Origin: Candidatus Curtissbacteria bacterium
Lineage (GTDB): Bacteria; Patescibacteriota; Microgenomatia; Curtissbacterales; GWA2-41-24
Assembly (NCBI GenBank): GCA_016183325.1
Contig: JACPEV010000013.1
Span: forward strand, 4,837-68,836
Reading direction: 5' to 3'
DNA length: 64,000 nt
The number at the start of each line of letters is the position of its first letter. Position 1 is the stretch's first letter. The translations under genes and the position numbers were made by a program. This document shows, in pieces, positions 6,081-49,356 of this stretch. The notes under the pieces are model-generated. The model had not been told where the DNA came from and searched no databases. It worked only from the letters and a program-made list of their open reading frames with translations.

Positions 6081-6953
6081 TTAGAGTTCCTCTAACTTTA
6101 CTTTCTCCTCGCCGTGGGGGAGTTGGATTAGGGAAAGATAGCGCTCGGTTGTGGAAAGACGTTTGTGGCCGGCGATTTTACTGATTAAGACGAGTGAGGC
6201 ACCGGATGAGAGGTGATGTGAAACCCAGGTGTGTCTGAGGTCATTGACTTTGGCGCCAGTAATTCCAGCTTTTCTGTAATTGCGGTCGATAGCAGTTCTT
6301 ATATTTCTGACTAGAAGAGGTTTGCCAGTTTTGGTAATGAAGAGAGCTTTGTTGGCGGTTTTTGGTCTGATTTCTATGTATCTTTTAAGAGCGATTTCGG
6401 CCGATTTGTTTAAGGGAACTGTTCTTTCGTTTCTGTTTTCCTGGGGTCTTACGTAAAGGTGGCCTTCTTTGCCATTACCAAAGAAGACGTCATCGGTTCG
6501 CAGGTTTGCCAGCTCGCCAATTCTGATGCCACATTGAAGTAGTACTTCGATAATGGCGGCGATTCTAATGTCATCTCGGGCTGCGTCGCGAAGAGCTCTA
6601 TATTCGGTTGGTGAGAGAATTCTTGGAGGTTTGGTTTCAAATTTTGGATGGTCAACGAGATTAGCCGGGTCATCGGTTATGTATTCCTGGATCTTTAGGA
6701 AGCGGAAGAAAGTTTTAGTGGAGTTTAACTTTCGAGAGATAGACTTTGGGGTATAACCATTTTTTTGAAGTTTGGCCAGAAAGCCGTTGATATCATCTGC
6801 CGTGACTTCGTGGACGTGAGCCTTGGATAGTTCCTGTAAAAATTCGACAAGCTGTTCGATATCTTTGCCGTAGGCTAAGATTGTGGCAGACGTACGTTTT
6901 TTATTTTTAAGATGCTCAATAAATTCCTTATGAGCTTCTGACAATTTCTTCAT
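6081..6953 (-). CDS. site-specific tyrosine recombinase, XerC/XerD family
   Basis: 290 aa. The C-terminal catalytic region LRHTWVSHHLSSGASLVLISKIAGHKRLSTTERYLSL supplies the R..H..R..Y residues, and the N-terminal domain is SAM-like. Confidence 0.85.
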   Translation of the reverse strand: MKKLSEAHKEFIEHLKNKKRTSATILAYGKDIEQLVEFLQELSKAHVHEVTADDINGFLAKLQKNGYTPKSISRKLNSTKTFFRFLKIQEYITDDPANLVDHPKFETKPPRILSPTEYRALRDAARDDIRIAAIIEVLLQCGIRIGELANLRTDDVFFGNGKEGHLYVRPQENRNERTVPLNKSAEIALKRYIEIRPKTANKALFITKTGKPLLVRNIRTAIDRNYRKAGITGAKVNDLRHTWVSHHLSSGASLVLISKIAGHKRLSTTERYLSLIQLPHGEEKVKLEEL

Positions 6954-7462: not shown

Positions 7463-7700
7463 TGACAGGGGTGGGAATCGAACCCACAACCTAGAGGTTA
7501 TATCTTCCTCTCGCCAAAGGCGAGAGCGATATATCACCTTGTGGCAACGGCAGGATTCGAACCTGCGACCTAGGCTTTATGAGGGCCCCGCTCTACCACT
7601 GAGCTACGCTGCCGAAGATATATCAGATTCCCGCTCTGCGGGAAGGCTGATATGATTCTCTCGCTCTACCATTGAGCTACCCTGCCGAATGTAAGAGGTA
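7462..7700 (-). tRNA. interrupted tRNA(CAU)-like gene; its 5' half (7617-7700) and 3' half (7462-7540) flank an intact tRNA
   Basis: Minus-strand reading of the 5' half: GGCAGGGTAGCTCAATGGTAGAGCGAGAGAATCATA. Minus-strand reading of the 3' half: CCTCTAGGTTGTGGGTTCGATTCCCACCCCTGTCA. The acceptor halves GGCAGGG and CCCTGTC pair with one G-U. Both D and T arms are canonical. About 155 nt, including a complete tRNA, sits in the anticodon region. Confidence 0.35.
7542..7613 (-). tRNA. tRNA-Met (anticodon CAU), elongator type; could alternatively be tRNA-Ile2
   Basis: Minus-strand sequence GGCAGCGTAGCTCAGTGGTAGAGCGGGGCCCTCATAAAGCCTAGGTCGCAGGTTCGAATCCTGCCGTTGCCA. G1-C72 is paired, the loop is CTCATAA and the T-loop is TTCGAAT. 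There is one 31-39 mismatch. Confidence 0.6.
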
Positions 7701-7862
7701 TTCTAACAAAAGTTTTTAGATAAAAAAAGACTCGGCCACTTGTGTCGAATCTTTTTTGATGTTCTATTTTGTTTTAACCAACTTCCGAAGGAAGTTGAAA
7801 CGAGAAATGACGTAGCGGTTAAGTTTCTTTAGAAGAAACTGTTAAGCGAAGTCCATTTCGAG

Positions 7863-7937
7863 TTGGTAGCGGGGGCGGGAGTCGAACCCACTTCTGGAGA
7901 TTATGAGCCTCCCGAGATACCGTTTCTCCACCCCGCG
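7863..7937 (-). tRNA. initiator tRNA-fMet (anticodon CAU)
   Basis: Minus-strand sequence CGCGGGGTGGAGAAACGGTATCTCGGGAGGCTCATAATCTCCAGAAGTGGGTTCGACTCCCGCCCCCGCTACCA. The first 11 nt and the 3' CCCCCGC(A/T)ACCA match E. coli tRNAfMet. Positions 1:72 are unpaired (C1:U72), a feature of initiator tRNAs. CCA is encoded. Confidence 0.8.
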
Positions 7938-10813: not shown

Positions 10814-12751
10814 ATGGCAAAAGTAGAATCGCAAGAGAACGGAAAATTAGCGGGTAGGTCCCCGATACCGCGCGTGCCTTTGCCTAAAATGAACGGTAAA
10901 TCTTCCTGGAGGGGATTTTTGATTTATATTGTTTTGGGATTTATTCTTTTTATTTTCTTCGCGTTTTCTACCAATCCAGAGCAGCGATTTCAAACGGCTG
11001 AACCACTCTCAAAAGTGATTTCTGACATTCGTGACAATAAAGTCGAACAAGTCGAAGTCGATGGGGAGAGAATTTCAGTCAAATTAAAGGATGGTACGGT
11101 TTATGCTTCCAGAAAAGAGGAAAATCAGAGCATGACCGAAATATTGAAAGATGCTGATGTTGATCCAACTTTGGCCCAGATTAACGTTCGTGATCGGACT
11201 TTTTCGCAGGCGTGGATTACAATATTGACCACTTTTTTACCTTTGGTACTAATGGTTCTTTTCTTCTTTTTTATTTTCAGGCAGGCCAGAGAAGGCGCTT
11301 CTTCGGTTTTTGCTTTTGGCCAGTCAAAAGCTAGGCAATTCAGCCGCGATATGCCAAAGGTTACTTTTGCGGATGTGGCCGGAGTTGATGAAGCTAAGCA
11401 AGAGCTACAAGAGGTGGTTGACTTTTTAAGACATCCTGAAAAATATAGAGCAGTTGGTGCAAGAACTCCCAAAGGAGCACTTTTGATTGGGCCAGCTGGT
11501 ACCGGTAAAACACTTTTAGCAAAGGCTGTTGCCGGAGAAGCGGGAGTGCCTTTTTATTCGGTTGCCGGTAGTGAATTTATGGAAATGTTGGTCGGAGTCG
11601 GGGCTGCCAGGGTTCGCGATCTATTTTCCCAAGCAAAAAGAAGTGCCCCGGCAATTATTTTTATTGATGAGATTGAATCAATCGGCAGAATGAGAGGGAT
11701 GGGCTTTTCGGGAGGTCACGACGAGCGCGAGCAGACTCTAAATCAGATTTTGGTTGAAATGGATGGATTTAATCCAAATGATAACGTTCTGGTGATGGCA
11801 GCGACTAACAGACCTGATTTATTGGATCCCGCCCTGACCCGACCTGGCAGGTTTGATAGAAGAGTCACTTTGGATCTTCCTGATATTGAGGGAAGAAAAG
11901 CGATACTTAAAATTCACAAGAAGGGGAAACCGTTTGCGCCGGATGTTGATGACGAGCGGATTGCCAGAAGAACCGTAGGTTTTTCGGGAGCGGATCTTGC
12001 CAATATGTTAAATGAGGCAGCGATTTTGGCGGCAAGAACGGGTAAAAAAGCTATTGATAACTTGGATATTGAGGAGGCTGCCACAAAAGTTAAACTTGGG
12101 CCACAAAGGAGAAGGATGCAATCTGAGGAAGAAAGAAAGATGACGGCATATCATGAAGGAGGGCATGCGCTGGTTGCTCATTTCCTGCCGAATGTTGACC
12201 CGGTTCATAGAATTTCTATTGTTGCTCGAGGCGTGACAGGAGGGCATACATTAGTGCCGCCTACAGTTGACAGGTATACGGAAACTAAGACAAGGTTGAT
12301 GGAAAGAATTGCCACTTTGCTTGGGGGAAGATCTGCTGAGGAGCTGATTTTTAATGAGTTTACAACCGGTGCAGCTTCTGATCTGGAAATTGCATCAGGT
12401 CTGGCCCGGGATATGGTGACTGAGTTTGGCATGAGCGATCTAGGGCCTACCATATTTTCTCCGAGGCCTCAGTTTGGAATCTGGCCGGTGATGGAAGGGG
12501 GAAGTCAAGTGTCACCGGAGCTGGCTGCCAAAATTGATAAAGAGATTTCTAAGTTAATTGATGCGGGGCATAAAAAGGCAAGAGAGTTGTTGCAAAAACA
12601 TAAGGCGAAACTTGATCTTGTCGCAGAGACTCTTCTTGTGAAGGAGACTTTGGATCGAGATGAGTTTGAGAAGCTGGTCGGTAAGCCAGTTTCTACAAAT
12701 GGGGAGATTAAAATTAAGAGCTCTACTTCTGCCAAATCCGTCCAGGCATGA
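10814..12751 (+). CDS. ftsH: ATP-dependent zinc metalloprotease FtsH
   Basis: 645 aa. N-terminal TM helices, AAA Walker A GPAGTGKT, second region of homology (SRH), and zinc motif HEGGHALVAH. Confidence 0.95.
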   Translation: MAKVESQENGKLAGRSPIPRVPLPKMNGKSSWRGFLIYIVLGFILFIFFAFSTNPEQRFQTAEPLSKVISDIRDNKVEQVEVDGERISVKLKDGTVYASRKEENQSMTEILKDADVDPTLAQINVRDRTFSQAWITILTTFLPLVLMVLFFFFIFRQAREGASSVFAFGQSKARQFSRDMPKVTFADVAGVDEAKQELQEVVDFLRHPEKYRAVGARTPKGALLIGPAGTGKTLLAKAVAGEAGVPFYSVAGSEFMEMLVGVGAARVRDLFSQAKRSAPAIIFIDEIESIGRMRGMGFSGGHDEREQTLNQILVEMDGFNPNDNVLVMAATNRPDLLDPALTRPGRFDRRVTLDLPDIEGRKAILKIHKKGKPFAPDVDDERIARRTVGFSGADLANMLNEAAILAARTGKKAIDNLDIEEAATKVKLGPQRRRMQSEEERKMTAYHEGGHALVAHFLPNVDPVHRISIVARGVTGGHTLVPPTVDRYTETKTRLMERIATLLGGRSAEELIFNEFTTGAASDLEIASGLARDMVTEFGMSDLGPTIFSPRPQFGIWPVMEGGSQVSPELAAKIDKEISKLIDAGHKKARELLQKHKAKLDLVAETLLVKETLDRDEFEKLVGKPVSTNGEIKIKSSTSAKSVQA

Positions 12752-12917: not shown

Positions 12918-14024
12918 ATGACGAAGAAGAAGGATGTATACTCGGAGATTAATAATATGGCTAAAAAGCTGCTTCTAATCGACGGGAATTCACTATTTCA
13001 TCGGGCATATCATGCACTGCCGCCGCTGACGGATAAAAACGGGGAGATGGCCAATGCGGTGTTTGGATTTTCTAATATGTTGCTTAAGGCAATTTCTGAA
13101 GTCAAACCGGATTATATTGCTTGTGCATTTGACACAAAAGCTCCGACTTTTCGCCACATTGAATTTGAGAAATATAAAGCTCAAAGAGTTGCGCCGCCGC
13201 CGGATCTTTATCCGCAACTGCCGAAAGTGAAAAAAGTTTTGGATGCGTTTGGAATTGCTTATTTTGAAAAAGAGGGCTATGAAGCAGATGATTTGTTGGC
13301 AACACTGGCAACTAGAGCCTTGGAATCTGTCATCCTGGAGGGAGTGAAACGACCGATAGGATCTAATGAAAAAAAGAGTAGAGATTCTATCGCTTCGCTC
13401 CAGAATGACAAAAGTGTAGATCAAGTAATTATTCTTTCTGGTGATAGAGACTGTCTGCAATTAGTTGACGGTAGAGTCAAAGTTCAGATGCCGGGATGGA
13501 ATTTGCAGGGGACTACATTATATGGATCGGAGGAGGTTCGGGAAAAATATGGACTCGAACCTCATCAGATGGTGGATTACAAGTCGCTCGTCGGAGATCC
13601 TTCGGATAATGTGCCGGGAGTCAGTGGAATAGGGCCAAAAACTGCAAGTCAACTTTTACAAAAATATCACACCCTGGAAAATCTTTTTAAAAACCTTAAC
13701 AAGATTCCTGAGGCTTTACGTCAAAAACTAGAAGTCGGCCACAAGACAGCCCTTGCTGCTAAGAAGTTGGTGGAACTGGACCGAAACATCGATTTACGAT
13801 TTACGATTAACGATTTACGATTTGAACCGGATTGGGAGAAGGTTCGGCGGGAATACGAACGATTAGGCTTTAAAAGCATAGTCGCGAAGATCCTTGGATC
13901 AGCTAACACCTCCGAGGTGGGTTTACCCCGAGCGGAGTCGAGGGGCTTTGACTCATCGGAGGTGGGTCAAGCCGCGAAGCGAAAACCCAAATCCAATAAC
14001 TCTGATCAGCTTGAGTTAATCTGA
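12918..14024 (+). CDS. 5'-3' exonuclease (Pol I N-terminal domain / FEN family), stand-alone, with a C-terminal extension
   Basis: KKLLLIDGNSLFHRAYHALPPL, then GYEADD, and H3TH GVSGIGPKTA. Probable true start is MAKKLL at 12957. Contains in-frame repeat insertions at 13329-13409, about 13790-13830 and 13906-13966. Confidence 0.8.
   Translation: MTKKKDVYSEINNMAKKLLLIDGNSLFHRAYHALPPLTDKNGEMANAVFGFSNMLLKAISEVKPDYIACAFDTKAPTFRHIEFEKYKAQRVAPPPDLYPQLPKVKKVLDAFGIAYFEKEGYEADDLLATLATRALESVILEGVKRPIGSNEKKSRDSIASLQNDKSVDQVIILSGDRDCLQLVDGRVKVQMPGWNLQGTTLYGSEEVREKYGLEPHQMVDYKSLVGDPSDNVPGVSGIGPKTASQLLQKYHTLENLFKNLNKIPEALRQKLEVGHKTALAAKKLVELDRNIDLRFTINDLRFEPDWEKVRREYERLGFKSIVAKILGSANTSEVGLPRAESRGFDSSEVGQAAKRKPKSNNSDQLELI
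13329..13409 (+). repeat. palindromic element family A, copy A1, in-frame within the exonuclease gene
   Basis: gtcatcctggagggagtgaaacgaccgataggatc...gattctatcgcttcgctccagaatgac, with inverted termini gtcatYctggag. Translated in-frame as SVILEGVKRPIGSNEKKSRDSIASLQNDK. Confidence 0.8.
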
Positions 14025-15471: not shown

Positions 15472-16782
15472 ATGAAAATCGCCCTCGTCCATGACTACTT
15501 AAACGAATTTGGTGGGGCAGAACGGGTTCTTTTGGCGCTGTCGGAGATTTGGCCCAAGGCGCCGATTTATACGGCGTTTTATAAAAAGGGATCGACGGCA
15601 TACGAGCGATTTGCCGATAAAAAAATAATTGCTTCTTGGGCCCAAAATGTGCCCTTTTTTGCCGACTACTTGCACAGTCCCTTGAGATTTTTAGCTCCTT
15701 TGATTTGGGGCAGTTTTGATTTTTCGGGATTTGATGTGGTCATTACGTCGGCCAGTTGGTATGTGACGAAAGGCGTGATCAGGTCATCAGGTCATCAGGT
15801 AATCAGGACATCGGGAAAAAAGGGGAAAAATCCCGACAACCCGACAACCCGACAACCCGACAACCCGATTGAGGTTTGTTATTGTCACACGCCACCGAGA
15901 TATTTGTATGGCTATACAACCTCGGTTGATTGGCAGAAATATTGGCCGGTGAGGTTGTATGCACTGATAGTGAATCATTTCATGCGGGTTTATGATTTTG
16001 AAGCAGCGCAGAGGGTCGATCATTTTATTGCTAATTCGAAGGAAGTCGCAGGAAGGATTAAGAAGTTTTACAGACGTGATTCGACGGTAATTTATCCGCC
16101 GGTAGATTTACCATGTTCATCGTTAATTGTTAATAGTTCATCGGAAAAAAGAGCGATGAACGATAGGCAAAGCCTGCGGTCCTCGTCGAGTCAAGACTCG
16201 ACTCCGGGCCTAAAACGATCTACGATTAACGATTACTTCCTTGTTGTTTCCAGAATCGTCGGCGGTAAAGGTTTAAATTTAGCTGTTGAGGTGGCGATGA
16301 AAATGAACTTGAAGTTGAAAGTGGTGGGGAGTTCGGCGGGGTATGGAAGGGAATATCAAAAATTGAGAGAGATAGCCCGCCTCAGCTCGGCGAGGCAAAC
16401 TGGTCCAAATGTGGAGTTTTTGGGGTTTGTCGAAGATAGTGAGCTTGCCGAACTATACTGCGGAGCACGAGCTTTTTTGGCTTTGGCGCAGGATGAGGAT
16501 TTTGGAATAACGCCTGTTGAGGCGATGCTTTGCGGCACACCGGTGATTGCGTTTGATGGGGGGGGATATAGGGAAACGGTCATCCAGCGAAAAACCGGGC
16601 TGTTCTTTGATCCGGCGACAGCGGGTTCTTTAACTTTGGCAATTAATAATTTTTTAGATATGGAGAAAAAGGGGGAGTGGGACCGTGATTTTATCAAAGA
16701 ACACGCGCAGAAGTTTAATAAAGACAGGTTTAAGAAGGAAATAATCAAATTTGTACAGCATAAGATACGGATGGGAGAGTGA
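15472..16782 (+). CDS. glycosyltransferase family 4 (GT-B, RfaG-like)
   Basis: N-terminal MKIALVHDYLNEFGGAERV and C-terminal EDFGITPVEAMLCGTPVIAFDGGGYRETV (E-x7-E region). Two in-frame simple-repeat insertions at 15779-15870 and 16130-16240. Confidence 0.8.
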   Translation: MKIALVHDYLNEFGGAERVLLALSEIWPKAPIYTAFYKKGSTAYERFADKKIIASWAQNVPFFADYLHSPLRFLAPLIWGSFDFSGFDVVITSASWYVTKGVIRSSGHQVIRTSGKKGKNPDNPTTRQPDNPIEVCYCHTPPRYLYGYTTSVDWQKYWPVRLYALIVNHFMRVYDFEAAQRVDHFIANSKEVAGRIKKFYRRDSTVIYPPVDLPCSSLIVNSSSEKRAMNDRQSLRSSSSQDSTPGLKRSTINDYFLVVSRIVGGKGLNLAVEVAMKMNLKLKVVGSSAGYGREYQKLREIARLSSARQTGPNVEFLGFVEDSELAELYCGARAFLALAQDEDFGITPVEAMLCGTPVIAFDGGGYRETVIQRKTGLFFDPATAGSLTLAINNFLDMEKKGEWDRDFIKEHAQKFNKDRFKKEIIKFVQHKIRMGE

Positions 16783-18579: not shown

Positions 18580-19476
18580 ATGCCAGAACTTCCCGAGGTA
18601 ACCGTAATCACAAATAGTCTTAATAAGAAGATTAGAGGGTTAGTTATGAGAGGTATCGAATATGACTGGCCGAAGAAGTTTTACTGGGCCGCCGGCCCCA
18701 GAGGGCCTCTGGCCCGGAGGGGAATGGTTTATGTTCTTAATGATCTTTCGGGAATGAAAGTTGAAAGGGTTGATCGAGTCGGGAAAGTAATAATAATTGC
18801 TTTGGAGAAAGGAATTTCAATTCTCATCCATCTTAAACTTACCGGGCAGTTGATATATCAGGACAAAAAAACCAGAATTGCGGGTGGGCATCCGATTCCG
18901 CCTTTGAATTTGCCGGTTCCCAATAAGACCACGAGAGTCACTTTTGGATTCACTAACGGTGGACATTTGTATTTCAATGACATGCGAAAATTTGGTTGGG
19001 TAAAGATAATTGAAAATGGAAAATTGAAAATGGAAAATTTTCTTGGGAAATTAGGGCCGGACCCTTTAGTTATGAGTTATGAGCAGTTTAGAGATAGGCT
19101 TAGTAAGAAGAAAGGTCGTATAAAGAAAACCTTGATGGATCAGACTTTTATTTCCGGAGTAGGGAATATTTATTCGGATGAAGCTTTGTGGCTGGCAAAG
19201 ATTCATCCGGCCAGATCTGTTGAGAGTTTGGCAAAGACCGAGATAAAAGCTCTTTTTGATGGACTTCGAGAAAGTCTTAAGTTGGCGATAGAAAAGGGCG
19301 GATCGAGCGCAAATTCGTTTGTGGACAGCGGTGGGGAGCGGGGTTTATTTCTTTCTTTTGCCAAAGCCTATCATATGACGGGAAGACCTTGTGCACGCTG
19401 CAAAACACCAATCGTCAGAAAAAAAATGGACGGAAGAAGTGCGCATTTTTGTCCTTCTTGCCAAAAGCTTCTATGA
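18580..19476 (+). CDS. mutM: formamidopyrimidine-DNA glycosylase (Fpg/MutM)
   Basis: N-terminal MPELPEV, H2TH region, and C-terminal zinc finger CARCKTPIVRKKMDGRSAHFCPSCQK. Confidence 0.85.
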   Translation: MPELPEVTVITNSLNKKIRGLVMRGIEYDWPKKFYWAAGPRGPLARRGMVYVLNDLSGMKVERVDRVGKVIIIALEKGISILIHLKLTGQLIYQDKKTRIAGGHPIPPLNLPVPNKTTRVTFGFTNGGHLYFNDMRKFGWVKIIENGKLKMENFLGKLGPDPLVMSYEQFRDRLSKKKGRIKKTLMDQTFISGVGNIYSDEALWLAKIHPARSVESLAKTEIKALFDGLRESLKLAIEKGGSSANSFVDSGGERGLFLSFAKAYHMTGRPCARCKTPIVRKKMDGRSAHFCPSCQKLL

Positions 19477-22296: not shown

Positions 22297-23361
22297 ATGT
22301 ACATCCCAAAATTTACCATTACCAACAAAATCCTAAAGGAGATTGGGAGAGTGGAAGCTTCTAAGGAAATAATTGAGAATGCGCCGCTTGTGCCGGCTTA
22401 TGAGGCCAAGTTTCGGGATGAGGCGATAATCAGAACCGTTCATCACGGAACACACATTGAGGGTAATCCGCTTAATACCGGCGAAGTAGCGGCTGTTTTG
22501 GAGGGTAGAGAAGTTGAAGCAAAGGATCGGGACGTGCAGGAAGTTTTGAATTATCGAAGGGTTTTGGCGTACATCGATAAACGACGAACGACTAACGACA
22601 AACGCCAAAACGTTTCAGAGAAAGATCTTCTCTCAATTCATCGTCTTACAGTAGAGAAGATTTTGGCTCCTAACAAGGCCGGAAAATATCGCAAAACCCA
22701 AGTGGTGGTCAAGAATTCGAAGACAGGCAAAGTCAGTTTTGTGCCGCCGAAAGCCAGTGAAGTGCCGACTTTAGTTCGCGATTTTATGGCATGGCTTTCT
22801 GAGAAGTCCGAAGAAATTCATCCGGTTTTGGCAGCAGGAATTACGCATTATGTTTTGGCGTTTATTCATCCCTTTGTGGACGGGAATGGGAGGTCTGCAA
22901 GGGCTTTGGCGACGATGGTTTTGTTTGCCAGAGGCTATGATATTAAAAAGTTTTTTTCGCTGGAGGAATATTTTGACAGAAGTGCCGGCAAATATTACGA
23001 AACGTTGCAAACTGTTTCCAATCAAAAAGCAGAAAGTTTGTCCGATCGCGATCTGACAGTCTGGCTGGAGTATTTTTGTCAGGGTTTAGCTGAGGAGCTT
23101 GCAAAAGTTAGGGGGAGGGTACAGAAATTGTCGCTTGATCTGAAGTTGAAAGGGAGGACAGGTCAGCTAGTGCTTTCGGAGCGGCAAATGAAGCTGGTTG
23201 AGTATCTTGAATCTTACGGATCGATTAGCAATCGGGCTTGGCGCAGCCTACTTTCGAAATTTTCAGACGATACCATTTTGCGTGATCTTAAAGATTTGCA
23301 GAAAAAAGGGCTGATAAAGAAAAAAGGTTCGACAAAAGGAGCCGTGTATGTTCTGAAATGA
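22297..23361 (+). CDS. Fic-family protein (Fic/DOC AMPylator-like) with a C-terminal winged helix
   Basis: Fic motif HPFVDGNGRSARAL. Confidence 0.8.
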   Translation: MYIPKFTITNKILKEIGRVEASKEIIENAPLVPAYEAKFRDEAIIRTVHHGTHIEGNPLNTGEVAAVLEGREVEAKDRDVQEVLNYRRVLAYIDKRRTTNDKRQNVSEKDLLSIHRLTVEKILAPNKAGKYRKTQVVVKNSKTGKVSFVPPKASEVPTLVRDFMAWLSEKSEEIHPVLAAGITHYVLAFIHPFVDGNGRSARALATMVLFARGYDIKKFFSLEEYFDRSAGKYYETLQTVSNQKAESLSDRDLTVWLEYFCQGLAEELAKVRGRVQKLSLDLKLKGRTGQLVLSERQMKLVEYLESYGSISNRAWRSLLSKFSDDTILRDLKDLQKKGLIKKKGSTKGAVYVLK

Positions 23362-26489: not shown

Positions 26490-28058
26490 TTGAGGATAAT
26501 TAGAACAAAATGGTTGCAAAATAATTTCTCCAAGGAGCATTTTATACGGGGCTTCGATGCTAAAATAAATTTGATGAAATTCGTTGCCGATTTGCATTTA
26601 CATAGCAAGTACTCCAGAGCAGTATCACAAGAAATGATTTTGCCAAAAATGGCCCAGTGGGCCAAACTTAAGGGGATAAATGTTTTGGCGACTGGAGATT
26701 TTACGCATCCTTTTTGGTTTGATCAGCTGAAAAAGGAGTTGATTGATGATGGCAACGGACTTTATCGGCTAAAGCCGACAATTGACAATTCACATTTAAC
26801 AATTGACAAAAGCAAGTCAAGTGTTAATGGCTCGCCTCGCTTCGCGCCTGCGTCGACGATAGTCGCGGGCGAAGCGGGTCAAATGTTAAATGTTAAACAA
26901 GAAGTTTACTTCATGCTCTCATGCGAGATTGCTTCCATATACTCTCAAGGTGGCAAAGTCAGAAGAATCCACAATTTATTCTTTTTCCCCTCTTTGGGCT
27001 CTGTTGAAAAATTTAACAGGGCGCTTCTTGCGCGAGGTGCTAGTCTGCGATCTGACGGTAGGCCAGTGGTGGGAATAAATTCGCGGGATCTGGCGGAAGT
27101 CGCGCTTAAAGTTGACAAGAAGGCTTTAGTGATTCCTGCACATGCATGGACTCCGTGGTTTTCTATTTTTGGCAGTTTTTCCGGTTTTGATTCTATTGCT
27201 GAGTGTTTTGGGGACATGAGCAAATATATTTATGGAATTGAAACCGGTTTATCTTCTGATCCGGCAATGAACTGGAGGATAGAAGACTTGGACAGCCGAG
27301 CCATTCTTTCGTTTTCCGATGCACATAGTTTGGAAAAAATGGGAAGGGAAGCGACAGTGTTTGAGGCGGAGGAGCTTAGTTATGAGAGCATTTATGATGC
27401 AATAAGGTTGTCAGGTAATCAGGCAATCGGGTTATCAGGGAAGCAAATGCCCGATTACCAGACATCCCGAGAACCTAGTAACCCGTCAAAGATTGCTTTT
27501 ACTATCGAATTTTATCCGGAGGAAGGGAAATATCATTTTACGGGCCATAGGGATTGTAATTTTCGTCAATCACCGGAAGAGACAGCCAAAAATGGGAATA
27601 TTTGTCCGGTTTGCAGGCGACCTTTGACTATTGGCGTAATGCACCGCGTGAAGCAATTGGCTTCACGCGAAATTTCCAATTTCAAATTTCCAATTTCAAA
27701 TGGGGTTAAATGGGTAAAATCAGAGGAGGGAAGGCCACCTTATGTTTCGATGGTGCCACTTGGAGAAATTCTTGCGGAGGCACTCGGAGCAGCTGTAAAA
27801 ACTCAAAAAGTGAGTGATACTTATTTTCAGTTGGTAAACAATCTAGGCAGCGAATTTAATGTTCTTTTGAAGGCTGACCTTTCCGATATCGCCAGATTTT
27901 CGAATCAAAAAGTAGCAGAAGGGATTGATCTTGTCAGACGTGGGGAGATTATCGTTGATCCTGGGTATGATGGCAATTTTGGCGTTGTTAAAATATGGCC
28001 GGATGTTCCTTCCAGCGAGCCAAAAGTTGAACCATCGCAACTGAATTTATTTGCATAA
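26490..28058 (+). CDS. PHP-domain nuclease, endonuclease Q-like
   Basis: ADLHLHSKYSRAVS is a PHP His motif, as at the EndoQ N-terminus. There is also a Cys cluster, CPVCRRPLTIGVMHRV. Probable start is MKFVADLHLH at about 26575. Two in-frame repeat insertions at 26775-26890 and 27405-27490. Confidence 0.45.
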   Translation: MRIIRTKWLQNNFSKEHFIRGFDAKINLMKFVADLHLHSKYSRAVSQEMILPKMAQWAKLKGINVLATGDFTHPFWFDQLKKELIDDGNGLYRLKPTIDNSHLTIDKSKSSVNGSPRFAPASTIVAGEAGQMLNVKQEVYFMLSCEIASIYSQGGKVRRIHNLFFFPSLGSVEKFNRALLARGASLRSDGRPVVGINSRDLAEVALKVDKKALVIPAHAWTPWFSIFGSFSGFDSIAECFGDMSKYIYGIETGLSSDPAMNWRIEDLDSRAILSFSDAHSLEKMGREATVFEAEELSYESIYDAIRLSGNQAIGLSGKQMPDYQTSREPSNPSKIAFTIEFYPEEGKYHFTGHRDCNFRQSPEETAKNGNICPVCRRPLTIGVMHRVKQLASREISNFKFPISNGVKWVKSEEGRPPYVSMVPLGEILAEALGAAVKTQKVSDTYFQLVNNLGSEFNVLLKADLSDIARFSNQKVAEGIDLVRRGEIIVDPGYDGNFGVVKIWPDVPSSEPKVEPSQLNLFA

Positions 28059-28392
28059 GATGAAAGATAGGAATAGAAATTTAGTAGCGACTATTTCTTA
28101 TTTTGCTTTTTTTATTACTGGCATTGTTGTTTTTTTGGCCGAGAAAGATGACAAATTTATTCGTTTCCACGCTCTGCAATCTATTATGGTTTTTGGAGGA
28201 TTGTTTGGTATAAGTGTGGTTTTAGGACTTTTGTTTGGACCATTTAGTTTTTTGGGAATAATCTCGAGTTTAATTAATAATGTGATTTGGATTGCCTGGC
28301 TGATTATTTGGTTGGTTTCTATGGTGAAGGCATATCGGGGCCAAATATTTAAGTGGCCGATAGCCGGTGAACTCGCCGAAAAATATGCTTAA
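28051..28392 (+). CDS. small integral membrane protein
   Basis: 113 aa with three predicted TM helices. Confidence 0.4.
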   Translation: MHKMKDRNRNLVATISYFAFFITGIVVFLAEKDDKFIRFHALQSIMVFGGLFGISVVLGLLFGPFSFLGIISSLINNVIWIAWLIIWLVSMVKAYRGQIFKWPIAGELAEKYA

Positions 28393-29021
28393 TGATTTTT
28401 GAAAATCGGTCTCAGGCTGGAGAATTATTAGCTCGCGAGCTCTCCAAAATTAAAATTGATGCCCACAATACGATAATTGCGGCCATTCCCCGCGGCGGGG
28501 TCGTAGTCGCTTCGGTCATTGCCAAAGCCTTGAATTTACCGTTGTCTTGCCTTGTTATCAAAAAATTGGGAGCGCCAGGCAACCCGGAGTTGGCCATCGG
28601 AGCGACGGCTTCTTTTGGCAAACCGGTTTTGGATCAGTGGTTTATTGCTGACTTGAAAGTTCCTAAGGAATATTTAAAAGCGGAGATTCTAAAAAAGAGA
28701 AAAGAAGCGCAAGGTCGGGGAAAATTTTTAAGAATAAACGTCAGTGATTTTATAAATCGGGATGTTATTGTGGTTGATGACGGACTAGCGACTGGACAAA
28801 CTGCCAAAGCCGCGGCGAAGATTCTTAAAAAGCTTGGAGCAAAAAAGTTAATTTTGGCGGTGCCGTGCGCTTCGCCTGCGACAATTGATTTGGTAAAGGG
28901 TGATTATGATGAGGTTATTTGTCTAGAGGTGAATCCAAGTTTAGTTGCCGTGGGGCAATTCTATCGTGATTTTCGAGAAGTTTCCGATGAGGAAGTGAAG
29001 AGGCTTCTTATTAACAATTGA
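28392..29021 (+). CDS. phosphoribosyltransferase-domain protein
   Basis: PRPP-binding motif VIVVDDGLATGQTAKAA. Confidence 0.7.
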   Translation: MIFENRSQAGELLARELSKIKIDAHNTIIAAIPRGGVVVASVIAKALNLPLSCLVIKKLGAPGNPELAIGATASFGKPVLDQWFIADLKVPKEYLKAEILKKRKEAQGRGKFLRINVSDFINRDVIVVDDGLATGQTAKAAAKILKKLGAKKLILAVPCASPATIDLVKGDYDEVICLEVNPSLVAVGQFYRDFREVSDEEVKRLLINN

Positions 29022-29054
29022 CAATTGACCATTAACAATTGACAATTTACAGCA

Positions 29055-29633
29055 ATGAAGTTAATTGCAGGGTTGGGTAATCCCGGAGAAAAATTCAAAA
29101 ACAATCGGCATAATGTTGGGTTTAAGGTGGTTGATGATTTTTCGCGAAGTAATGGTCTTTCATGGCGATATAGTCAGGATTTGATGTGCTATTGGATTAA
29201 GACTGTCCAATATGTTCTGATTAAACCGGTGACCTATATGAACAAGGCAGGCCAATCTATTAAATCCGTATGTGATTTTTACAAAATTGAGCCCAAGGAT
29301 GTTTTAGTGATTGCTGACGATTTGGATTTGCCGCTTGGGAAAATAAGAATGACTTTTAACGGTTCAGCAGGAGGGCATCATGGGATCGAATCGACGGTTG
29401 AAAGTCTCTCGACAATGGATTTTGCAAGACTTAGGATAGGCATAGGCCCGCTTGGACCAATCGGAGAGTCAGGTCCGCCAATGTCGAAAGAGCAAAAAGT
29501 GATCGAGCACGTGTTATCTGATTTTTCTGATAGCGAAAAAGAAAAGCTTGGAGACATTATAAGCCGAGCGATAGAAGCGGTACAGTCTTACGTGGATGAC
29601 GGCGTAGAAGCGACTATGAACAGATATAATTAA
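29055..29633 (+). CDS. pth: peptidyl-tRNA hydrolase
   Basis: MKLIAGLGNPGEKFKNNRHNVGF is the canonical Pth N-terminus, with the catalytic His in context. Confidence 0.9.
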   Translation: MKLIAGLGNPGEKFKNNRHNVGFKVVDDFSRSNGLSWRYSQDLMCYWIKTVQYVLIKPVTYMNKAGQSIKSVCDFYKIEPKDVLVIADDLDLPLGKIRMTFNGSAGGHHGIESTVESLSTMDFARLRIGIGPLGPIGESGPPMSKEQKVIEHVLSDFSDSEKEKLGDIISRAIEAVQSYVDDGVEATMNRYN

Positions 29634-29694
29634 CAGTTGACAGCTGACATTTGATAATTGACAAATTTAGAGCAAGTTAAATGTCAATGGTTAA

Positions 29695-30399
29695 TTGTCA
29701 ATTGTTATAACTATGCCTTCGGCTGCTGAACTGATAAATTTTGCGGAACAACTAATTATTCGCTGGGGAATTTGGTTAATACCGATCGGGGCATTTTTGG
29801 AAAATTCGATAATTTTGGGATTTATTTTTCCTGGAGTGACTGTGATTTTTTTGTCGGGATTTGTAGCCAGAACAAGCGGCGAAAATCTATTTTTAATAAT
29901 TTTACTGGCGACTTTAGGGTCATTTTTGGGTGACAATTTTGATTATTTAATCGGTAAGCGAGCAGGCAAGGTTCTAGAGGAAAAGCCACTTTTTGCCAAA
30001 CCAGTATCTTTAGTAGAGCCTTTTTTGCTAAAACACGGGATCTGGGCAGTTTTCGCCGGCCGTTTTTCTGCTTGGAGCCGAGCTTGGATAGCGCTGGCCT
30101 GCGGGATTATTCGGTTTAAGTACTGGAAATTTGCGCTAGTTTCGGCAGCGTCGGCGCTGATTTGGACTTCTGCCTGGATTATCGGTGGCTATTTAATGGC
30201 TGGTAATCGCAAGCTGATTGAGGAGTGGTTTGACCGAGCATCGGATTTAGTTATCCTGGGCCTTTTGGTCCTTATTATTTACTATTTCAGGACAAGATTG
30301 AAGCTGATTTTTGATTTGGTAGTTTATTTTATCCACAAAACAGGAAAGCGGGTAGTCGGAAAGGTGACAGGTAATGACCAGGACCGAGGGCAAGTTTAG
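29695..30399 (+). CDS. DedA-family membrane protein
   Basis: LIGKRAGKVLEEKP...GIWAVFAGRF is a DedA/SNARE-associated signature, with multiple TM helices. Confidence 0.65.
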   Translation: MSIVITMPSAAELINFAEQLIIRWGIWLIPIGAFLENSIILGFIFPGVTVIFLSGFVARTSGENLFLIILLATLGSFLGDNFDYLIGKRAGKVLEEKPLFAKPVSLVEPFLLKHGIWAVFAGRFSAWSRAWIALACGIIRFKYWKFALVSAASALIWTSAWIIGGYLMAGNRKLIEEWFDRASDLVILGLLVLIIYYFRTRLKLIFDLVVYFIHKTGKRVVGKVTGNDQDRGQV

Positions 30400-42208: not shown

Positions 42209-42820
42209 ATGAAGGACTTTACGCTTAAACATTATGCATCAAGAACTCACGAAAAAATGCGGGAGGTTCTGATGGATCCTAATGCAGTAGGGCCGGAGAT
42301 TCATTATCACATGGTGCGGGGAGGGACTGACCAGCGAAATATTACGACTTGGGAGCCGGGAACTGTTGGTGGGGAGTATATAAAAACATATGGGCATTAT
42401 CATGTTGGCAAGTTGGATGAGACGTATTGGGTGATATTTGGAGAAGGGGTGGTTTTGGTACAAAAGAGAGCCGTAGGAGTTGATGGAAGCCCAATCGACG
42501 ATGAAATAGAGCAAGCTTATGCTGTTCATGTTCGTCCGGGTGATGCATTGTTTATCCCTGCCGAGTGGGGACATTTGGTGGCTAATATCTCCAAGACGTT
42601 CTTTGTGACAGCTGATGACTCTCCGGTAAATTTTGATGAATCTAATCCTGTCTCTTTGCCGGGGCATGCGGATTATGAAGCTGTGAAGCGAATGCAAGGG
42701 TTTTGTTATTACATTGTAGAGAAAGGCGGAAAGCCTGCCTTGGTTAAGAATCCCAAGTACAAAAAGGTGCCTGAACTTGAAATTATCGAAGCTAAGGATT
42801 ACCCTTTGTCAAAGGACTAG
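42209..42820 (+). CDS. cupin-type glucose-6-phosphate isomerase (archaeal-type cPGI)-like
   Basis: TVGGEYIKTYGHYH...GEGVVLVQ...HVRPGDALFIPAEWGH resembles the cPGI motifs TxGxEYxKTxGHYH and xPxxxxH. Confidence 0.45.
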   Translation: MKDFTLKHYASRTHEKMREVLMDPNAVGPEIHYHMVRGGTDQRNITTWEPGTVGGEYIKTYGHYHVGKLDETYWVIFGEGVVLVQKRAVGVDGSPIDDEIEQAYAVHVRPGDALFIPAEWGHLVANISKTFFVTADDSPVNFDESNPVSLPGHADYEAVKRMQGFCYYIVEKGGKPALVKNPKYKKVPELEIIEAKDYPLSKD

Positions 42821-43238
42821 ACCAATTTCCTATATTAGGCTTACGAGCTTCCAATAAATCATGAAACAAAGTTCTCCTAAATTCAGTCTCAGCTTTTGGC
42901 ATGGGCTTGGGCCAATGATGAATTCTATAGGCCAAAGCAAGAGCAATTTCAGCTTGCCTTTTTTTTGCAAGCAAATATTTGAGCAGAGGTTTAAGAACAG
43001 GTATGACGTGAGTTCCAGTTACGCGCCACTTAGTTACAGGCAAATTTCTACCTCTTATCAACTCTGGCCAATAACTACCTCCGAATGTTTTCTGGAGAAG
43101 TTGCATTGGCTCTATATCCGTCATTCCTACTTCTACCATCGGTTTAAATTGATCTTTGCCATATTGAAAAGTTTTTCTTATAGAAATACAACCTTCGCCG
43201 TCAATAAGACCTGCGAGATAAGCATAAACAGTTTTCAT
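42792..43238 (-). CDS. free-standing LAGLIDADG-family homing endonuclease-like protein
   Basis: N-terminal YLAGLIDGEGCISI, a single LAGLIDADG motif of the homodimer type. Confidence 0.7.
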   Translation of the reverse strand: MKTVYAYLAGLIDGEGCISIRKTFQYGKDQFKPMVEVGMTDIEPMQLLQKTFGGSYWPELIRGRNLPVTKWRVTGTHVIPVLKPLLKYLLAKKRQAEIALALAYRIHHWPKPMPKAETEFRRTLFHDLLEARKPNIGNWSSPLTKGNP

Positions 43239-43336: not shown

Positions 43337-45151
43337 ATTTGCGGGATTTTTGGTTACGTTGGTAAACAGCGTGACGCTGCAAAGATTGTTTTTGAGGGTC
43401 TTAAGCGGCTTGAATACCGCGGTTATGATTCGTGGGGAATAGTTGCGGTGAGTGGAAAGTTGAAAGTTGAGAGTGGAAAATTATTAGTAGAAAAGCATGT
43501 GGGGAAAATCGGCAATTCAACTCTCAATTCTCAACTCTCAATTCTCAAATCAAGTATAGCTCTTGGCCACACGCGCTGGGCGACGCACGGGGGAGTGACT
43601 AAGGAGAATGCCCATCCACATTTAGATTGCAGCGGAAATTTGGCTTTGGTTCATAACGGCATTGTCGAAAATTATCAAGAGCTTAAAAAAAGCCTCAAAA
43701 AAAAGCATAAATTTAAATCTCAGACGGATTCGGAAGTGATAGTACACATGATCGAGGAATTGAGAGGCTTAATCTCTTCTAAGGTTGAACCTTCAACAAA
43801 GGTTCAACCTTTAAAAGATACTGTCAGGAAAGTGTTTTTGAAACTCACAGGACTTAACGCTATTGTAGTGATGAATGATGGAGAACTGGTTGTTGCTAAG
43901 AACGGATCTCCTTTAGTTTTGGGGATAGGCAGTGGTGAGTATTTAGTAGCTTCTGATGCGGCGGCGCTTTTGCCTCACACAAATAAAGTTATTTTCCTGC
44001 GAGACAACCAGATGGCAGAAATAACGGATAGTGGAGTAAATATTTTTGATATAGCCTCAGATGAGGCAGTAACACCAAAAGTAGAAATACTAAATTGGAA
44101 AATTGAAGAAGCAAATCTTGGAGGCCATAAACACTTCATGATCAAAGAAATTTACGAGCAGCCAAAGGTTATCAGGAACATATCAGAAACTTATATAGAC
44201 CAAATAAGTGATCTTTGTAAGGTAATCGAGAAAGCTCATGGCACATTTTTTATTGGGGCTGGAACCGCATTTAATGCTTGTCTTGCCGGGGCGTATCTTT
44301 TTTCAAAGATTGCAAAAGCGCATGTAAATACGATTGTCGCTTCCGAATTTAATTATCTGGAGCATTTTTTACATAAAGAAACTTTGGTGATTGCTCTTTC
44401 ACAATCCGGGGAAACAATCGACGTTATTGAGCCCTTGAAAAGGGCAAAAGAAAAAGGTGCCAAGATTGTGGCGATTGTAAATAATTTGGGCTCGACGATT
44501 TGGCAAATGGCAGATTATAAATTGTTACTTGGTGCCGGAGTTGAGATGGCGGTTGCTTCAACAAAAGCTTATGTTTCTAAACTTTCTGTTTTAATCTTGA
44601 TTGCATATGGACTCGTGAATAGACTGGACGAGGGAAGAAAATTGCTTGCAGAGGCTGCTGATGAGGTTGAAAGACTATTGTTCGAGGAAGTGGAAAACAT
44701 AAAAAAAATCGCAAAAATTTTAGCAGTCCACGATCATATTTTTACCATTGGTCGAGGACTTTCGTATCAAACGGCCCTTGAGGCTGCTTTGAAGATGAAA
44801 GAGGTTAGTTATATTCATACGGAAGGATTGGCTGGAGGAGAGCTGAAGCACGGGCCGATTGCATTAATTTCAAAAGGGACGCCGTGCGTTGTTTTTGCAC
44901 CAAACGATGAGACACATGAGGCAATTATTTCTAACGCCACCGAGATTAAAGCAAGAGGCGGGTTGATTATCGGGGTTGGGTCAAAAAAGTCAGAAGTGTT
45001 TGACGAATGGGTCCAAGTGCGAGATTTAGGGGACGCTTCTATAATTTGCAATGTTATTCCAGCACAGCTATTTGGTTATTTTTTGGCGATTGAGAAAGGT
45101 TTGGACCCGGATAAGCCAAGAAATTTAGCAAAGTCAGTCACTGTGAAATAA
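43337..45151 (+). CDS. glmS: glutamine--fructose-6-phosphate aminotransferase, apparently initiating at ATT
   Basis: Frame reads (I)CGIFGYVGKQRDAAKIVFEGLKRLEYRGYDSWGIV, with the Ntn Cys directly after the initiator, plus two SIS domains and C-terminal ...KSVTVK. AAGGAGG sits 5 nt upstream of ATT 43337. The nearest in-frame ATG (43448) would delete the catalytic Cys. Two in-frame simple-repeat inserts at 43450-43550. Confidence 0.8.
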   Translation: MCGIFGYVGKQRDAAKIVFEGLKRLEYRGYDSWGIVAVSGKLKVESGKLLVEKHVGKIGNSTLNSQLSILKSSIALGHTRWATHGGVTKENAHPHLDCSGNLALVHNGIVENYQELKKSLKKKHKFKSQTDSEVIVHMIEELRGLISSKVEPSTKVQPLKDTVRKVFLKLTGLNAIVVMNDGELVVAKNGSPLVLGIGSGEYLVASDAAALLPHTNKVIFLRDNQMAEITDSGVNIFDIASDEAVTPKVEILNWKIEEANLGGHKHFMIKEIYEQPKVIRNISETYIDQISDLCKVIEKAHGTFFIGAGTAFNACLAGAYLFSKIAKAHVNTIVASEFNYLEHFLHKETLVIALSQSGETIDVIEPLKRAKEKGAKIVAIVNNLGSTIWQMADYKLLLGAGVEMAVASTKAYVSKLSVLILIAYGLVNRLDEGRKLLAEAADEVERLLFEEVENIKKIAKILAVHDHIFTIGRGLSYQTALEAALKMKEVSYIHTEGLAGGELKHGPIALISKGTPCVVFAPNDETHEAIISNATEIKARGGLIIGVGSKKSEVFDEWVQVRDLGDASIICNVIPAQLFGYFLAIEKGLDPDKPRNLAKSVTVK

Positions 45152-46060: not shown

Positions 46061-46594
46061 TCAATTGGGACTGATGGTATAACTAACTGTATTTGTTGAA
46101 ATGGGGCAAACGGTAGTATTTTGGGTTGGGTCTTTTTGGGAATCGTTTTGATTTTCAAGACAGGCAACTATTGAATAACCAGTGCAGGCGTTTGGCCCGC
46201 AGCTTGCGGGAGTTGGAGTGTAAGTATAAGCTGATCCGGTTTTGGGATCCTTTGGAACAGCTTTTATATAAGGATTTGATGCTGGGGAAAGATCCGGATT
46301 GGTCGAGGTTCCGGTTATGCCACAACTGCCTGAAACGTAAGTATCACAACTTGGATAATAATAGGCACCGGCGGTGTCTTGTCTGGCAAGCTCCAGAGCT
46401 TTTTTGGCGGCATCAAGATCTGTTTTGCGCCGGGAATCACGGCTTCTGGCTTGTGCTCCGCTGAAAGAGGCAACTGAAATTGTAGCTAAAATGCCGATAA
46501 TCGCGATAATGACTAATAATTCAATAAGAGTGAAGCCAGTGCGCCTTTGGCGCAAGTGATGAGTGATGAGTGATGAGTGATGAGTCGTGGGCAT
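46061..46594 (-). CDS. type IV pilin / pseudopilin (prepilin-type N-terminal methylation domain)
   Basis: GFTLIELLVIIAIIGILATISVASFSGAQARSRD is the class III signal and hydrophobic helix. A His-rich leader is encoded by (catcactcat) repeats. Confidence 0.75.
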   Translation of the reverse strand: MPTTHHSSLITHHLRQRRTGFTLIELLVIIAIIGILATISVASFSGAQARSRDSRRKTDLDAAKKALELARQDTAGAYYYPSCDTYVSGSCGITGTSTNPDLSPASNPYIKAVPKDPKTGSAYTYTPTPASCGPNACTGYSIVACLENQNDSQKDPTQNTTVCPISTNTVSYTISPN

Positions 46595-47321: not shown

Positions 47322-47721
47322 TTGTCAAGCGGTGTAGAATTAGTCGCGCGATATGCGAATACTGTTTGGTAATTTTTCTTCATTCTTACAAGTTCGCAAT
47401 TCATAGCTCTTTAACAACTGAAAAGTATGCCGCTTTTCAGTATTCTTTTGTTTGATCTTGATCCGCCTACGCTCTTCGAGCTTCGGCGGACTGCGAGTTC
47501 AAGCAAGCTTGAACTCTGAAAAGTGGCACCCAAAAAACCGGAAATCGGAATTCGGAAATCGGATTTCGGACTTTTTCTGAGATCTGATATCTGATATCTG
47601 AAATCCGGGAATAATCCTTAGAGTTATTTAAAATCGAGTTCAGATTAAATTCTTTTTTGAGAGTTTGATCCTAGCTCAGGATGAACGCTGGCGGCGTGCC
47701 TTAGGCATGCAAGTCGAACGG

Positions 47722-48929: not shown

Positions 48930-49022
48930 ACATTTGACATTTAACAAATTAACATTTGACTATTGGAAAATTTTGTAAATTTTTTAAGTCAATTGTTAAA
49001 TGTTACTAGTTAATTGTTCGAG
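48930..49022 (+). repeat. insertion of about 90 nt in the 16S helix around E. coli position 840, built of 'acatttgaca/caattgtta' repeats
   Basis: gaacatttgacatttaacaaattaacatttgactattgg...gtcaattgttaaatgttactagttaattgttcg lies between conserved cgcaaagtc...gacttt and gctaacgcgttaagt. Confidence 0.55.
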
Positions 49023-49084
49023 CAAAATCGTAGATTTTGCGAGCTGGATGTCGCAAGCTAACGCGTTAAGTGTCCCGCCTGGGA

Positions 49085-49152
<68 letters not shown>

Positions 49153-49356
49153 CAATTCGACACAAAGCGAAAAACCTTACCAGGATTTGACATCCTAACT
49201 GCACCCTAGTGGAAACACCGGGCTTCTTCGAGAGTGTTAGGACAGGTGCTGCATGGCTGTCGTCAGCTTGTACCGTGAGGCGCACCCTTAAGTGGGTCAA
49301 CAAGCGCAACCCCCATCCTGTGTTATATTTCACAGGAAACTGCCCGCTAAAAGCGA

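Follow-up and report, generated by a model that had tools for sequence, protein, structure and literature searches.

A dispersed heptamer-built hairpin repeat in protein-coding genes, the 16S rRNA gene and spacers of a Candidatus Curtissbacteria bacterium

We present here fam1, a short hairpin repeat built from degenerate heptanucleotides, with six copies in a 64,000-nucleotide (nt) stretch of the genome of a Candidatus Curtissbacteria bacterium, a member of the candidate phyla radiation (CPR; assembly GCA_016183325.1, contig JACPEV010000013.1, positions 4,837 to 68,836; this whole stretch is called the window below). The copies are homologous, stand as insertions relative to orthologs, are placed at helix tips or in protein loops, and in coding sequence have been purged of stop codons. 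fam1 is probably a non-autonomous repeat, akin to the STRR (short tandemly repeated repetitive) sequences or the Rickettsia palindromic elements (RPEs), that is kept where an RNA hairpin or a disordered protein loop would be harmless.

A preliminary description of the window had listed six blocks of palindromic words, and all six exist, displaced by no more than a few bases from where it had placed them (Table 1). The repeat itself stands, but its unit is a degenerate heptanucleotide and not a 12-nt palindromic word: Tandem Repeats Finder returned period 7 in all blocks. Because the unit is a heptanucleotide, the encoded peptides have a period of 7 amino acids (aa; e.g., TIDNSHL/TIDKSKS). Both strands were scanned for arms, defined as three tandem ACAWTTR units with at least 18 of 21 matches, which gave 13 matches in the window and 0.15 in shuffled sequences; 11 of the 13 lie inside the six blocks, and the remaining two, at 45435 and 16117, are weak. 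Alignment of the copies yielded a consensus with a left arm (AACATTTGACATTTAACATTTGACATTTGAC), a variable loop of 5 to 35 nt, and a 30-nt right arm (GTCAATTGTTAATGGTCAATTGTCAATTGTT), the units of one arm being of the ACATTTG type and those of the other of the CAATTGT type. Copies measure about 65 to 95 nt and occur in both orientations. Twenty columns of the right arm are invariant among the aligned copies, and copy C, a lone right arm, has the same base as the right arm of F at 30 of 31 positions, in agreement with the earlier view that the blocks in spacers, in two proteins and in the 16S rRNA form one family. A profile built from window and metagenomic copies matched exactly six sites in the window (E = 7.5e-16 to 5.8e-07) and detected no seventh copy in the 64 kb. 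Five blocks are hairpins whose RNA folds have z scores of -4.2 to -10.7 relative to shuffled controls (-4.2 to -5.3 for A, B, D and F).

Table 1. Positions of the fam1 copies, of the 16S rRNA gene and its insertions, and of other repeats (window numbering unless another locus is named)
Feature	Position	Length	Strand	Context
fam1 A	26777-26900		-	In frame in EndoQ-like gene (26574-28058); GC-rich hairpin nested at ~26831-26880
fam1 B	62465-62539		+	In frame in folC C-terminal ORF (62186-62953)
fam1 C	29009-29051		-	Lone right arm at end of PRTase gene (28392-29021); profile match
fam1 D	29634-29708		+	Complete hairpin, from pth stop (29631-29633) to VTT-domain gene ATG (29716)
fam1 E	48929-49018		+	Core of 134-nt insertion (~48907-49040) in 16S helix 26
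fam1 F	50846-50911		+	Complete hairpin downstream of 16S; best profile match (E = 7.5e-16)
Host 16S rRNA gene	47653-50672	~3.0 kb	+	Four insertions
16S insertion, helix 6	~47729-48152	415 nt		IVS-type; codes for 23S_rRNA_IVP protein (PF05635, S23p-type)
16S insertion		54 nt		Near model position 720
16S insertion with LAGLIDADG ORF (49983-50462)	49589-50541	~950 nt		Near E. coli position 1400, after ...ACACCGCC
Example tandem array	3011-3170
Example tandem array	4108-4148
Example tandem array	13788-13824
Example tandem array	15773-15871
Example tandem array	19008-19039
Example tandem array	22579-22609
Example tandem array	27405-27470
Example tandem array	27670-27701
Example tandem array	46553-46589
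Example tandem array	61488-61667
(Q)SLRSS(S/A)S module	16160-16215			Glycosyltransferase gene, window
(Q)SLRSS(S/A)S module	3750-3841			EndoQ gene of L085
(Q)SLRSS(S/A)S module				folC of P0124

Two copies lie in frame in protein-coding genes. The in-frame peptides that had been read from the sequence, TIDNSHLTIDKSKSSVNG...MLNVKQE in the EndoQ-like protein and KKTFDIKHLTFDKEKKKSMVNGQWS in folC, were confirmed, the latter in the C-terminal open reading frame (ORF) of folC. The EndoQ-like protein has a fully identical counterpart at NCBI, from a Candidatus Curtissbacteria bacterium (Microgenomates). Copy A codes for about residues 68 to 110 of the EndoQ-like protein (PTIDNSHLTIDKSKSSVNGSPRFAPASTIVAGEAGQMLNVKQE) and has a 47-nt GC-rich hairpin nested within one arm. 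It stands directly after the conserved YRLK motif, where orthologs have 0 to 50 aa of heptamer-derived sequence, peptides of 7-aa period among them; the ortholog comparison marks this site as a hypervariable insertion hotspot. An AlphaFold model gives residues 70 to 107 a pLDDT below 50 and no secondary structure, between two strands, and the insert is predicted to be a disordered loop. A related organism from another sample (L085), whose EndoQ is 75% identical, carries a homologous element at the same site with different nested modules, and the nested indels that separate the two are located at hairpin tips. Being common to both organisms, copy A is at least partly inherited vertically. Copy B codes for TFDIKHLTFDKEKKKSMVNGQWS, a 21- to 25-aa insertion between DGAHNPDK and the VLAFKKGK strand that is absent from all 11 folC orthologs compared; its RNA fold has z = -4.25.

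Stop codons occur in all three frames of the left arm of the consensus and of its right arm read in reverse complement, so the consensus hairpin cannot sit in a gene in either orientation. The coding copies depart from it at these points. B reads TFDIKHLTFD where the consensus reads TFDI*HLTFD, an in-frame TAA having become AAA, and A reads TIDNSHLTID where the consensus reads TIDN*PLTID, with TCA in place of the in-frame TGA. In L085 the stop at the position matching A was lost by a different base, giving TIDNLHL. That exactly the in-frame stops were lost, and through different substitutions, shows that the reading frame is maintained in the coding copies. The folC gene itself is split into three ORFs over 61284-62953: an exact 28-nt tandem duplication (61729-61756 and 61757-61784) brings a TGA and a frameshift, and a second frame change lies at ~62180-62196, beside a run of five T residues. 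Either the gene is a pseudogene or the assembly is in error here, and the NCBI annotation covers no more than a 199-aa piece.

The expansion that had been noticed inside the 16S rRNA gene was placed by Rfam alignment at the tip of helix 26, where 134 nt, with E in sense orientation as their core, replace the 4-nt apical loop (model positions ~831-835). Two similar palindromes of 25 to 26 nt flank E (X1, 48903-48928; X2, 49019-49043), and the region folds as one long hairpin (-70.7 kcal/mol, z = -10.7). The helix 6 insertion of the same gene has terminal stems made of complementary heptamer arrays, and the 16S leader (47535-47607) contains a hairpin of a word family matching these arms. The true 3' end of the gene, GGATCACCTCCTTTCT, lies at ~50672; the end called by Rfam, 49640, is misplaced, which we attribute to elements of this kind. 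No 23S gene follows the 16S gene within the window.

The remaining copies lie at gene ends and in spacers. The two blocks reported to flank pth do so, with refined limits: D begins right after the pth stop codon, and C ends 3 nt before the pth start codon (29055), supplying the last codons and the TGA stop of the preceding phosphoribosyltransferase (PRTase) gene. D ends 7 nt before the next start codon (z = -5.25). In Curtissbacteria locus L087, 4 nt separate the pth stop from the following ATG, and by comparison D is a clean insertion of 75 nt. The earlier wording that the repeat invades its sites thus holds for B and D as insertions relative to orthologs or relatives, does not extend to active mobility, which would be a further step, and must be tempered for A by its partly vertical descent. 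At the PRTase site, Levybacteria locus L054 likewise takes its stop codon from a lone fam1-type arm (12600-12635; …LLRNN*), closer Curtissbacteria relatives have no array there, and the native PRTase 3' ends resemble the repeat words. Horizontal transfer of the PRTase gene was rejected as the source of the shared array, the protein of the window being 62% identical to those of other Curtissbacteria and 47% to that of L054. A second Levybacteria locus (L015) has a fam1-type lone arm at 6823-6869. Copy F, as had been described, lies downstream of the 16S gene, ~175 nt past its true 3' end (z = -4.63), and is directly followed by a GC-rich hairpin (TCCGCCCGAAAGGGCGGA). Two transcriptional readings were dropped: intrinsic terminators, as no terminator-like sites were found in C, D or F, and promoters, as the sigma-70-like matches in C and D are not above those in shuffled sequences. 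The heptamer words do include the sigma-70 -35 hexamer TTGACA.

Copies outside the window were sought with 25 specified bases of the right arm, and the exact search recovered at least 120 metagenomic stretches and two IMG/VR contigs. Among the matches listed, 104 contexts are distinct: 91 are plain (GTCAATT/GTTAATT)n arrays or lone arms with GC contents of 0.28 to 0.66, 10 reproduce the asymmetric fam1 hairpin, and 3 have a perfectly complementary left arm. Among the 10 fam1 hairpins, which come from independent metagenomes, structural RNA genes are again entered at hairpin tips. In L104, a sense copy occupies the P12 apical loop of an RNase P RNA of 567 nt, against a model of 367 positions. 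In L123 and L156 (counted once), a 131-nt antisense insert interrupts a 23S hairpin between ...GAGUGCGUAA and GCUCAC..., which we read as H45, and in L101 a 110-nt antisense insert sits at the tip of the 23S hairpin just past the L1 stalk, read as H79. The 23S genes with fam1 copies also have group I introns, and several metagenomic copies show the palindrome-fam1-palindrome layout of 16S copy E. Functional insertions have been recovered in Escherichia coli at the tip of helix 26 and in H45, both of which coincide with eukaryotic expansion segments (PMC2441807); H45 is also a classical site of intervening sequences (IVSs), which RNase III excises (PMC4990558). The distribution of fam1 is patchy: the 64 kb studied here contain six copies, two other Curtissbacteria loci have none, and each of two Levybacteria loci has a single arm.

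Related arrays were also seen in other settings. A near-identical hairpin (AATTGACAATTGATAATTGACAATTGAC ... GTCAATTGTTAATTGTTAATTGTCAATTG) is present in L100, L112, L140, L141, L154 and about 20 similar loci, several of them labelled as human gut metagenome. The two IMG/VR viral contigs (L088 and L089; GC 0.53 to 0.55) carry (GTCAATT)n arrays. The heptamer word is thus cosmopolitan.

The preliminary description named read-level evidence of assembly artefacts as what would overturn it. It is very improbable that the blocks arose by mis-joining, or by collapse or expansion of low-complexity sequence, in a metagenome assembly. Four Logan assemblies, made independently from different runs, carry C and D at 100% identity, which rules out an artefact for these two copies. 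It is unlikely for A, whose homolog occupies the same site in another sample, and for E, which lies exactly at a helix tip with compensating flanks and has equivalents in independently assembled rRNA and RNase P genes from unrelated JGI assemblies. Each coding copy is moreover in frame with its stops lost. Some observations do point toward assembly trouble. Independent Logan contigs tend to stop within tandem arrays (27674/27701, 29011 and 61662/61663), folC has its exact 28-nt duplication and frameshift, and exact-protein look-ups with the EndoQ-like and folC ORFs gave no independent contig, while contigs found through neighbouring genes stop short of A, B, E and F, so that no independent contig spanning any of these four was found by either route. 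Further Logan contig ends lie at 52852 and 61429, and most of the ends are within tandem arrays, which is compatible with length polymorphism or k-mer ambiguity. Copy-number polymorphism of arrays between strains was considered for L210 and L211 and rejected, the differences being ordinary single-nucleotide polymorphisms in the ClpB-like gene, outside any array.

Heptamer arrays in the window are not limited to fam1. Tandem arrays of periods 7, 8 and 9 number 28, 10 and 7, against 0.1, 0.2 and 0.1 expected from shuffled sequences, with no excess at periods 4 to 6 and at most one array at periods 10 to 12. Merging gave 35 arrays, 21 within coding sequences, 4 at their edges and 10 intergenic; an inverted partner within 150 nt was found for 10 of the 35 and for 8 of 300 random segments. 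Besides fam1, the arrays represent at least four further word families (ATCAGGTA/CCCGACAA, coding for SGNQ...PDNP; GTGGAAA/GTTGAAA; CGATTTA; CGGAAAT/TCTGATA), and most arrays lie in genes and in frame (e.g., SGNQ...PDNP and SGKWKVESGKF). Other Microgenomates loci, like two loci of Thermodesulfovibrionia, also show an enrichment of period-7 arrays, and non-CPR loci with a GC content of 0.55 or more are almost free of them. Small GC-rich hairpin modules are nested at the tips of heptamer hairpins and recur at unrelated genes.

We think it probable that fam1 spreads as a non-autonomous element. New copies would arise at new sites in either orientation and would persist as passengers only at sites of low harm: apical loops of solvent-exposed RNA helices (16S helix 26 and, elsewhere, P12 of RNase P RNA and the 23S hairpins taken to be H45 and H79), disordered protein surface loops read in frame, gene ends, and intergenic spacers. 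Arm length would change by replication slippage of 7-nt units. The element would be selfish or neutral and not functional, and the rRNA copy may stay in the ribosome as an expansion segment or be cut out by RNase III like a classical IVS. Candidate routes of spread are transposition by a trans-acting enzyme and microhomology-primed template switching between copies. Several results weigh against this reading. Around four window and eight metagenomic copies, no target-site duplication and no shared or duplicated flanking bases were found, nor were terminal inverted repeats or terminal repeats matching any insertion sequence. Among the ~55 ORFs of the window there is no transposase, no gene for a RAYT (the transposase associated with repetitive extragenic palindromic, or REP, sequences) and no Y1_Tnp match; its only mobility-type genes are a Xer-like tyrosine recombinase, two LAGLIDADG ORFs and PD-(D/E)XK nucleases. 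A consensus copy would truncate a gene that it entered, so the coding copies are not simple insertions of a master sequence. The PRTase 3' site is filled in a distant lineage and not in closer ones, which fits local seeding as well as insertion. The same or similar heptamer arrays occur in very diverse metagenomic contigs, across the GC range given above, so word similarity alone is no proof of common descent. Finally, arms paired with their own partners at a mean of -21.5 kcal/mol and with swapped partners at -23.0 kcal/mol, a weak test, as the metagenomic copies were chosen through the near-invariant right arm. The stop-codon problem and the PRTase site shared with L054 leave room for local, microhomology-seeded growth.

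Such growth, as a full alternative, would need no mobility: each block would have expanded in place from a word-like seed by 7-nt slippage, fold-back template switching would have supplied the inverted arm, and the likeness of the copies would reflect a shared mutational preference for certain words with no master copy. It draws on the enrichment of period-7 to -9 arrays of many unrelated words, here and in the other Microgenomates and Thermodesulfovibrionia loci, and on a survey that found heptanucleotides to be the commonest category of 5- to 11-nt repeats in the majority of prokaryote genomes, polymerase slippage being the proposed origin (Mrazek 2007, as summarized in PMC4679880). Stops in every consensus frame suit it, since coding copies are reached more easily by stepwise growth under selection, as do the word-like native PRTase 3' ends at a site filled in two distant lineages, the absence of any target-site duplication or transposase from the searches above, and the plain arrays or lone arms that make up 91 of the 104 metagenomic contexts listed. 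Even so we consider it rather unlikely. D is a clean and complete hairpin set against a 4-nt empty site, with no intermediates; C and F agree almost base for base; and the asymmetric unit order, an ATTT-type arm followed by an AATT-type arm with the same GTTAATG variant unit, is conserved over unrelated loci, orientations and organisms, which independent slippage does not predict.

The blocks might instead be functional cis-elements, either RNA signals (RNase III sites, stabilizers of mRNA ends or modulators of translation initiation) or arrays bound by a protein that recognizes TTGACA-like heptamers. Heptamer-armed stems bound the helix 6 IVS and the 16S leader, and RNase III acts on IVS stems (PMC4990558); the ends of C and D lie 3 and 7 nt ahead of start codons, recalling the TAACTGA repeats of Beggiatoaceae, for which translational regulation has been proposed (PMC4679880); two classes have the PRTase 3' array at a conserved position; and the words contain the -35 hexamer. 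We nevertheless regard these functional readings as improbable. They are weakened because the copies occur in both orientations relative to transcription, close relatives lack copies at the same sites, no intrinsic terminators are predicted and promoter-like matches remain at background level; copies also lie inside coding regions and, in one case, as a half-copy, and the arms show no cis-specific co-variation, in what was a weak test. A last idea, to which we give only a slim chance, is a dedicated and widespread process that seeds 7-nt repeat hairpins, preferentially into existing hairpin loops, by acting on single-stranded DNA or through RNA. It would explain why helix tips of the 16S, 23S and RNase P RNAs of various uncultured bacteria bear one and the same asymmetric element, why nested indels fall at hairpin tips even in coding sequence, and why near-identical arrays are found in very different organisms. 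Such a process, if real, would in CPR bacteria be a general source both of new disordered loops in proteins and of expansion or intervening segments in rRNA.

Further repeats and genes were noted along the window and in the comparison loci. A GC-rich module coding for (Q)SLRSS(S/A)S lies within heptamer hairpins in three unrelated genes of three organisms (Table 1), which points to another small dispersed element with hairpin tips as its target. A hairpin of another word family (GTGGAAAGTTGAAAGTTGAGAGT / ACTCTCAATTCTCAACTCTCAA) is in frame near the N terminus of GlmS at 43449-43552; this gene apparently begins with a non-standard ATT at 43337, after which it reads CGIFGYVG. Just upstream of glmS lies a free-standing ORF for a LAGLIDADG endonuclease (42792-43238, minus strand), and the Xer-like recombinase gene (6081-6953, minus strand) adjoins two tRNA-Met genes (7541-7937). 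Between tRNA-Cys and tRNA-Ile there are 5.1 copies, 98% identical, of a 48-nt unit that includes the palindrome GGTTTTGACGAAGTCAAAACC (51929-52174). Close by, at 51189-51253 and 52805-52912, are 2.2 copies of a 30-nt repeat that has terminator-like hairpins and 2 copies of a 47-nt repeat. The two Thermodesulfovibrionia (Nitrospirota) loci, L037 and L066, have 4.7 period-7 arrays per 10 kb, a density like that of the window, some of them in inverted pairs (e.g., ACGATAC... / ...GTATCTTG).

If fam1 is the passenger element proposed here, dispersed heptamer hairpins would be a second and simpler source of rRNA insertions in CPR bacteria beside introns, and fam1-type elements would be a source of new disordered loops in CPR proteins. 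Such elements also have practical consequences, as they break short-read assemblies and lengthen 16S variable regions used in taxonomy and primer design.

Among known systems, heptanucleotide tandem repeats are a recognized class (Mrazek 2007 and MacGregor 2015, as reported in PMC4679880), and TAACTGA heptamer repeats occur in Beggiatoaceae, Cyanobacteria and Bacteroidetes (PMC4679880). fam1 resembles STRR and heptamer repeats in that dispersed short tandem 7-nt arrays of several word families share one genome, and heptamer repeats often lie just upstream of start codons (PMC4679880), as C and D do. It differs in its CPR host, in its units, ACATTTG and CAATTGT, which are unlike the cyanobacterial STRR words, and in being a defined two-arm hairpin with a conserved asymmetric unit order, whereas an STRR is an open-ended array. 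Vioque is said to have described in 1997 STRR sequences inside the RNase P RNA gene of heterocystous cyanobacteria, in helix P12, the helix whose tip carries the fam1 copy of L104. In the literature searched, no report was found of STRR or TAACTGA repeats in frame within proteins or in 16S or 23S genes.

RPEs, the standard example of palindromic repeats read in frame, are interspersed, abound in intergenic and coding DNA and lie in frame in conserved genes (PMC1779305), as do A, B and the L085 copy; they have proliferated in a lineage-specific manner with some inserts shared by descent (PMC1779305), which recalls the relation of the same three copies. RPEs measure 100 to 150 bp, are confined to Rickettsiales and are not made of tandem heptamers, whereas fam1 measures 65 to 95 nt in a CPR host. 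By their descriptions, RPE-1 to RPE-8 are unrelated to fam1 in sequence, and the fam1 consensus is closed in all frames.

With IVSs, fam1 shares the extended stem-loop in place of the small apical loop of a surface helix (16S helix 26 and the 23S copies), and one copy (L123/L156) lies in the hairpin read as H45, a classical IVS site (PMC4990558). The same 16S gene has a classical IVS with a 23S_rRNA_IVP ORF and terminal stems of heptamer arrays. IVSs are defined by RNase III excision and fragmented rRNA, whereas E is known here from its gene sequence. IVSs are not known to be held in common with protein-coding genes or intergenic DNA, are rare in 16S rRNA, and have no reported site at helix 26.

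REP sequences and their paired form (REPINs), and miniature inverted-repeat transposable elements (MITEs) such as the Correia and enterobacterial repetitive intergenic consensus (ERIC) elements, are likewise short, non-autonomous, dispersed and hairpin-forming. MITEs end in inverted repeats that match a parent insertion sequence and are flanked by target-site duplications; no such duplication surrounds the four window and eight metagenomic fam1 copies. The palindrome-core-palindrome layout of the rRNA copies loosely resembles a REP doublet. REPINs are extragenic and paired with a RAYT (PMC3116915), whereas two fam1 copies are intragenic and one is in rRNA. In the mitochondrial and plastid DNA of Volvox carteri, hairpins of ~50 nt proliferate in non-coding DNA, nest in one another and invade an rRNA-coding module (PMC2670323); nested hairpins also occur in fam1 copies. 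These are organellar, essentially excluded from protein-coding sequence and not based on heptamers.

Insertions in rRNA are unusually common in CPR bacteria, and most of them are attributed to introns. Both IVSs and rRNA insertions of CPR bacteria have been described before (PMC4990558; PMC9297842); the literature searched, which was incomplete, gave no description of a single heptamer-built hairpin family that in CPR bacteria extends over protein loops, spacers, 16S and 23S rRNA, and the RNA of RNase P. If our reading is correct, one repeat family joins the heptamers of the STRR type, in-frame selfish DNA as in RPEs, and the stem-loop insertions of rRNA and RNase P RNA.

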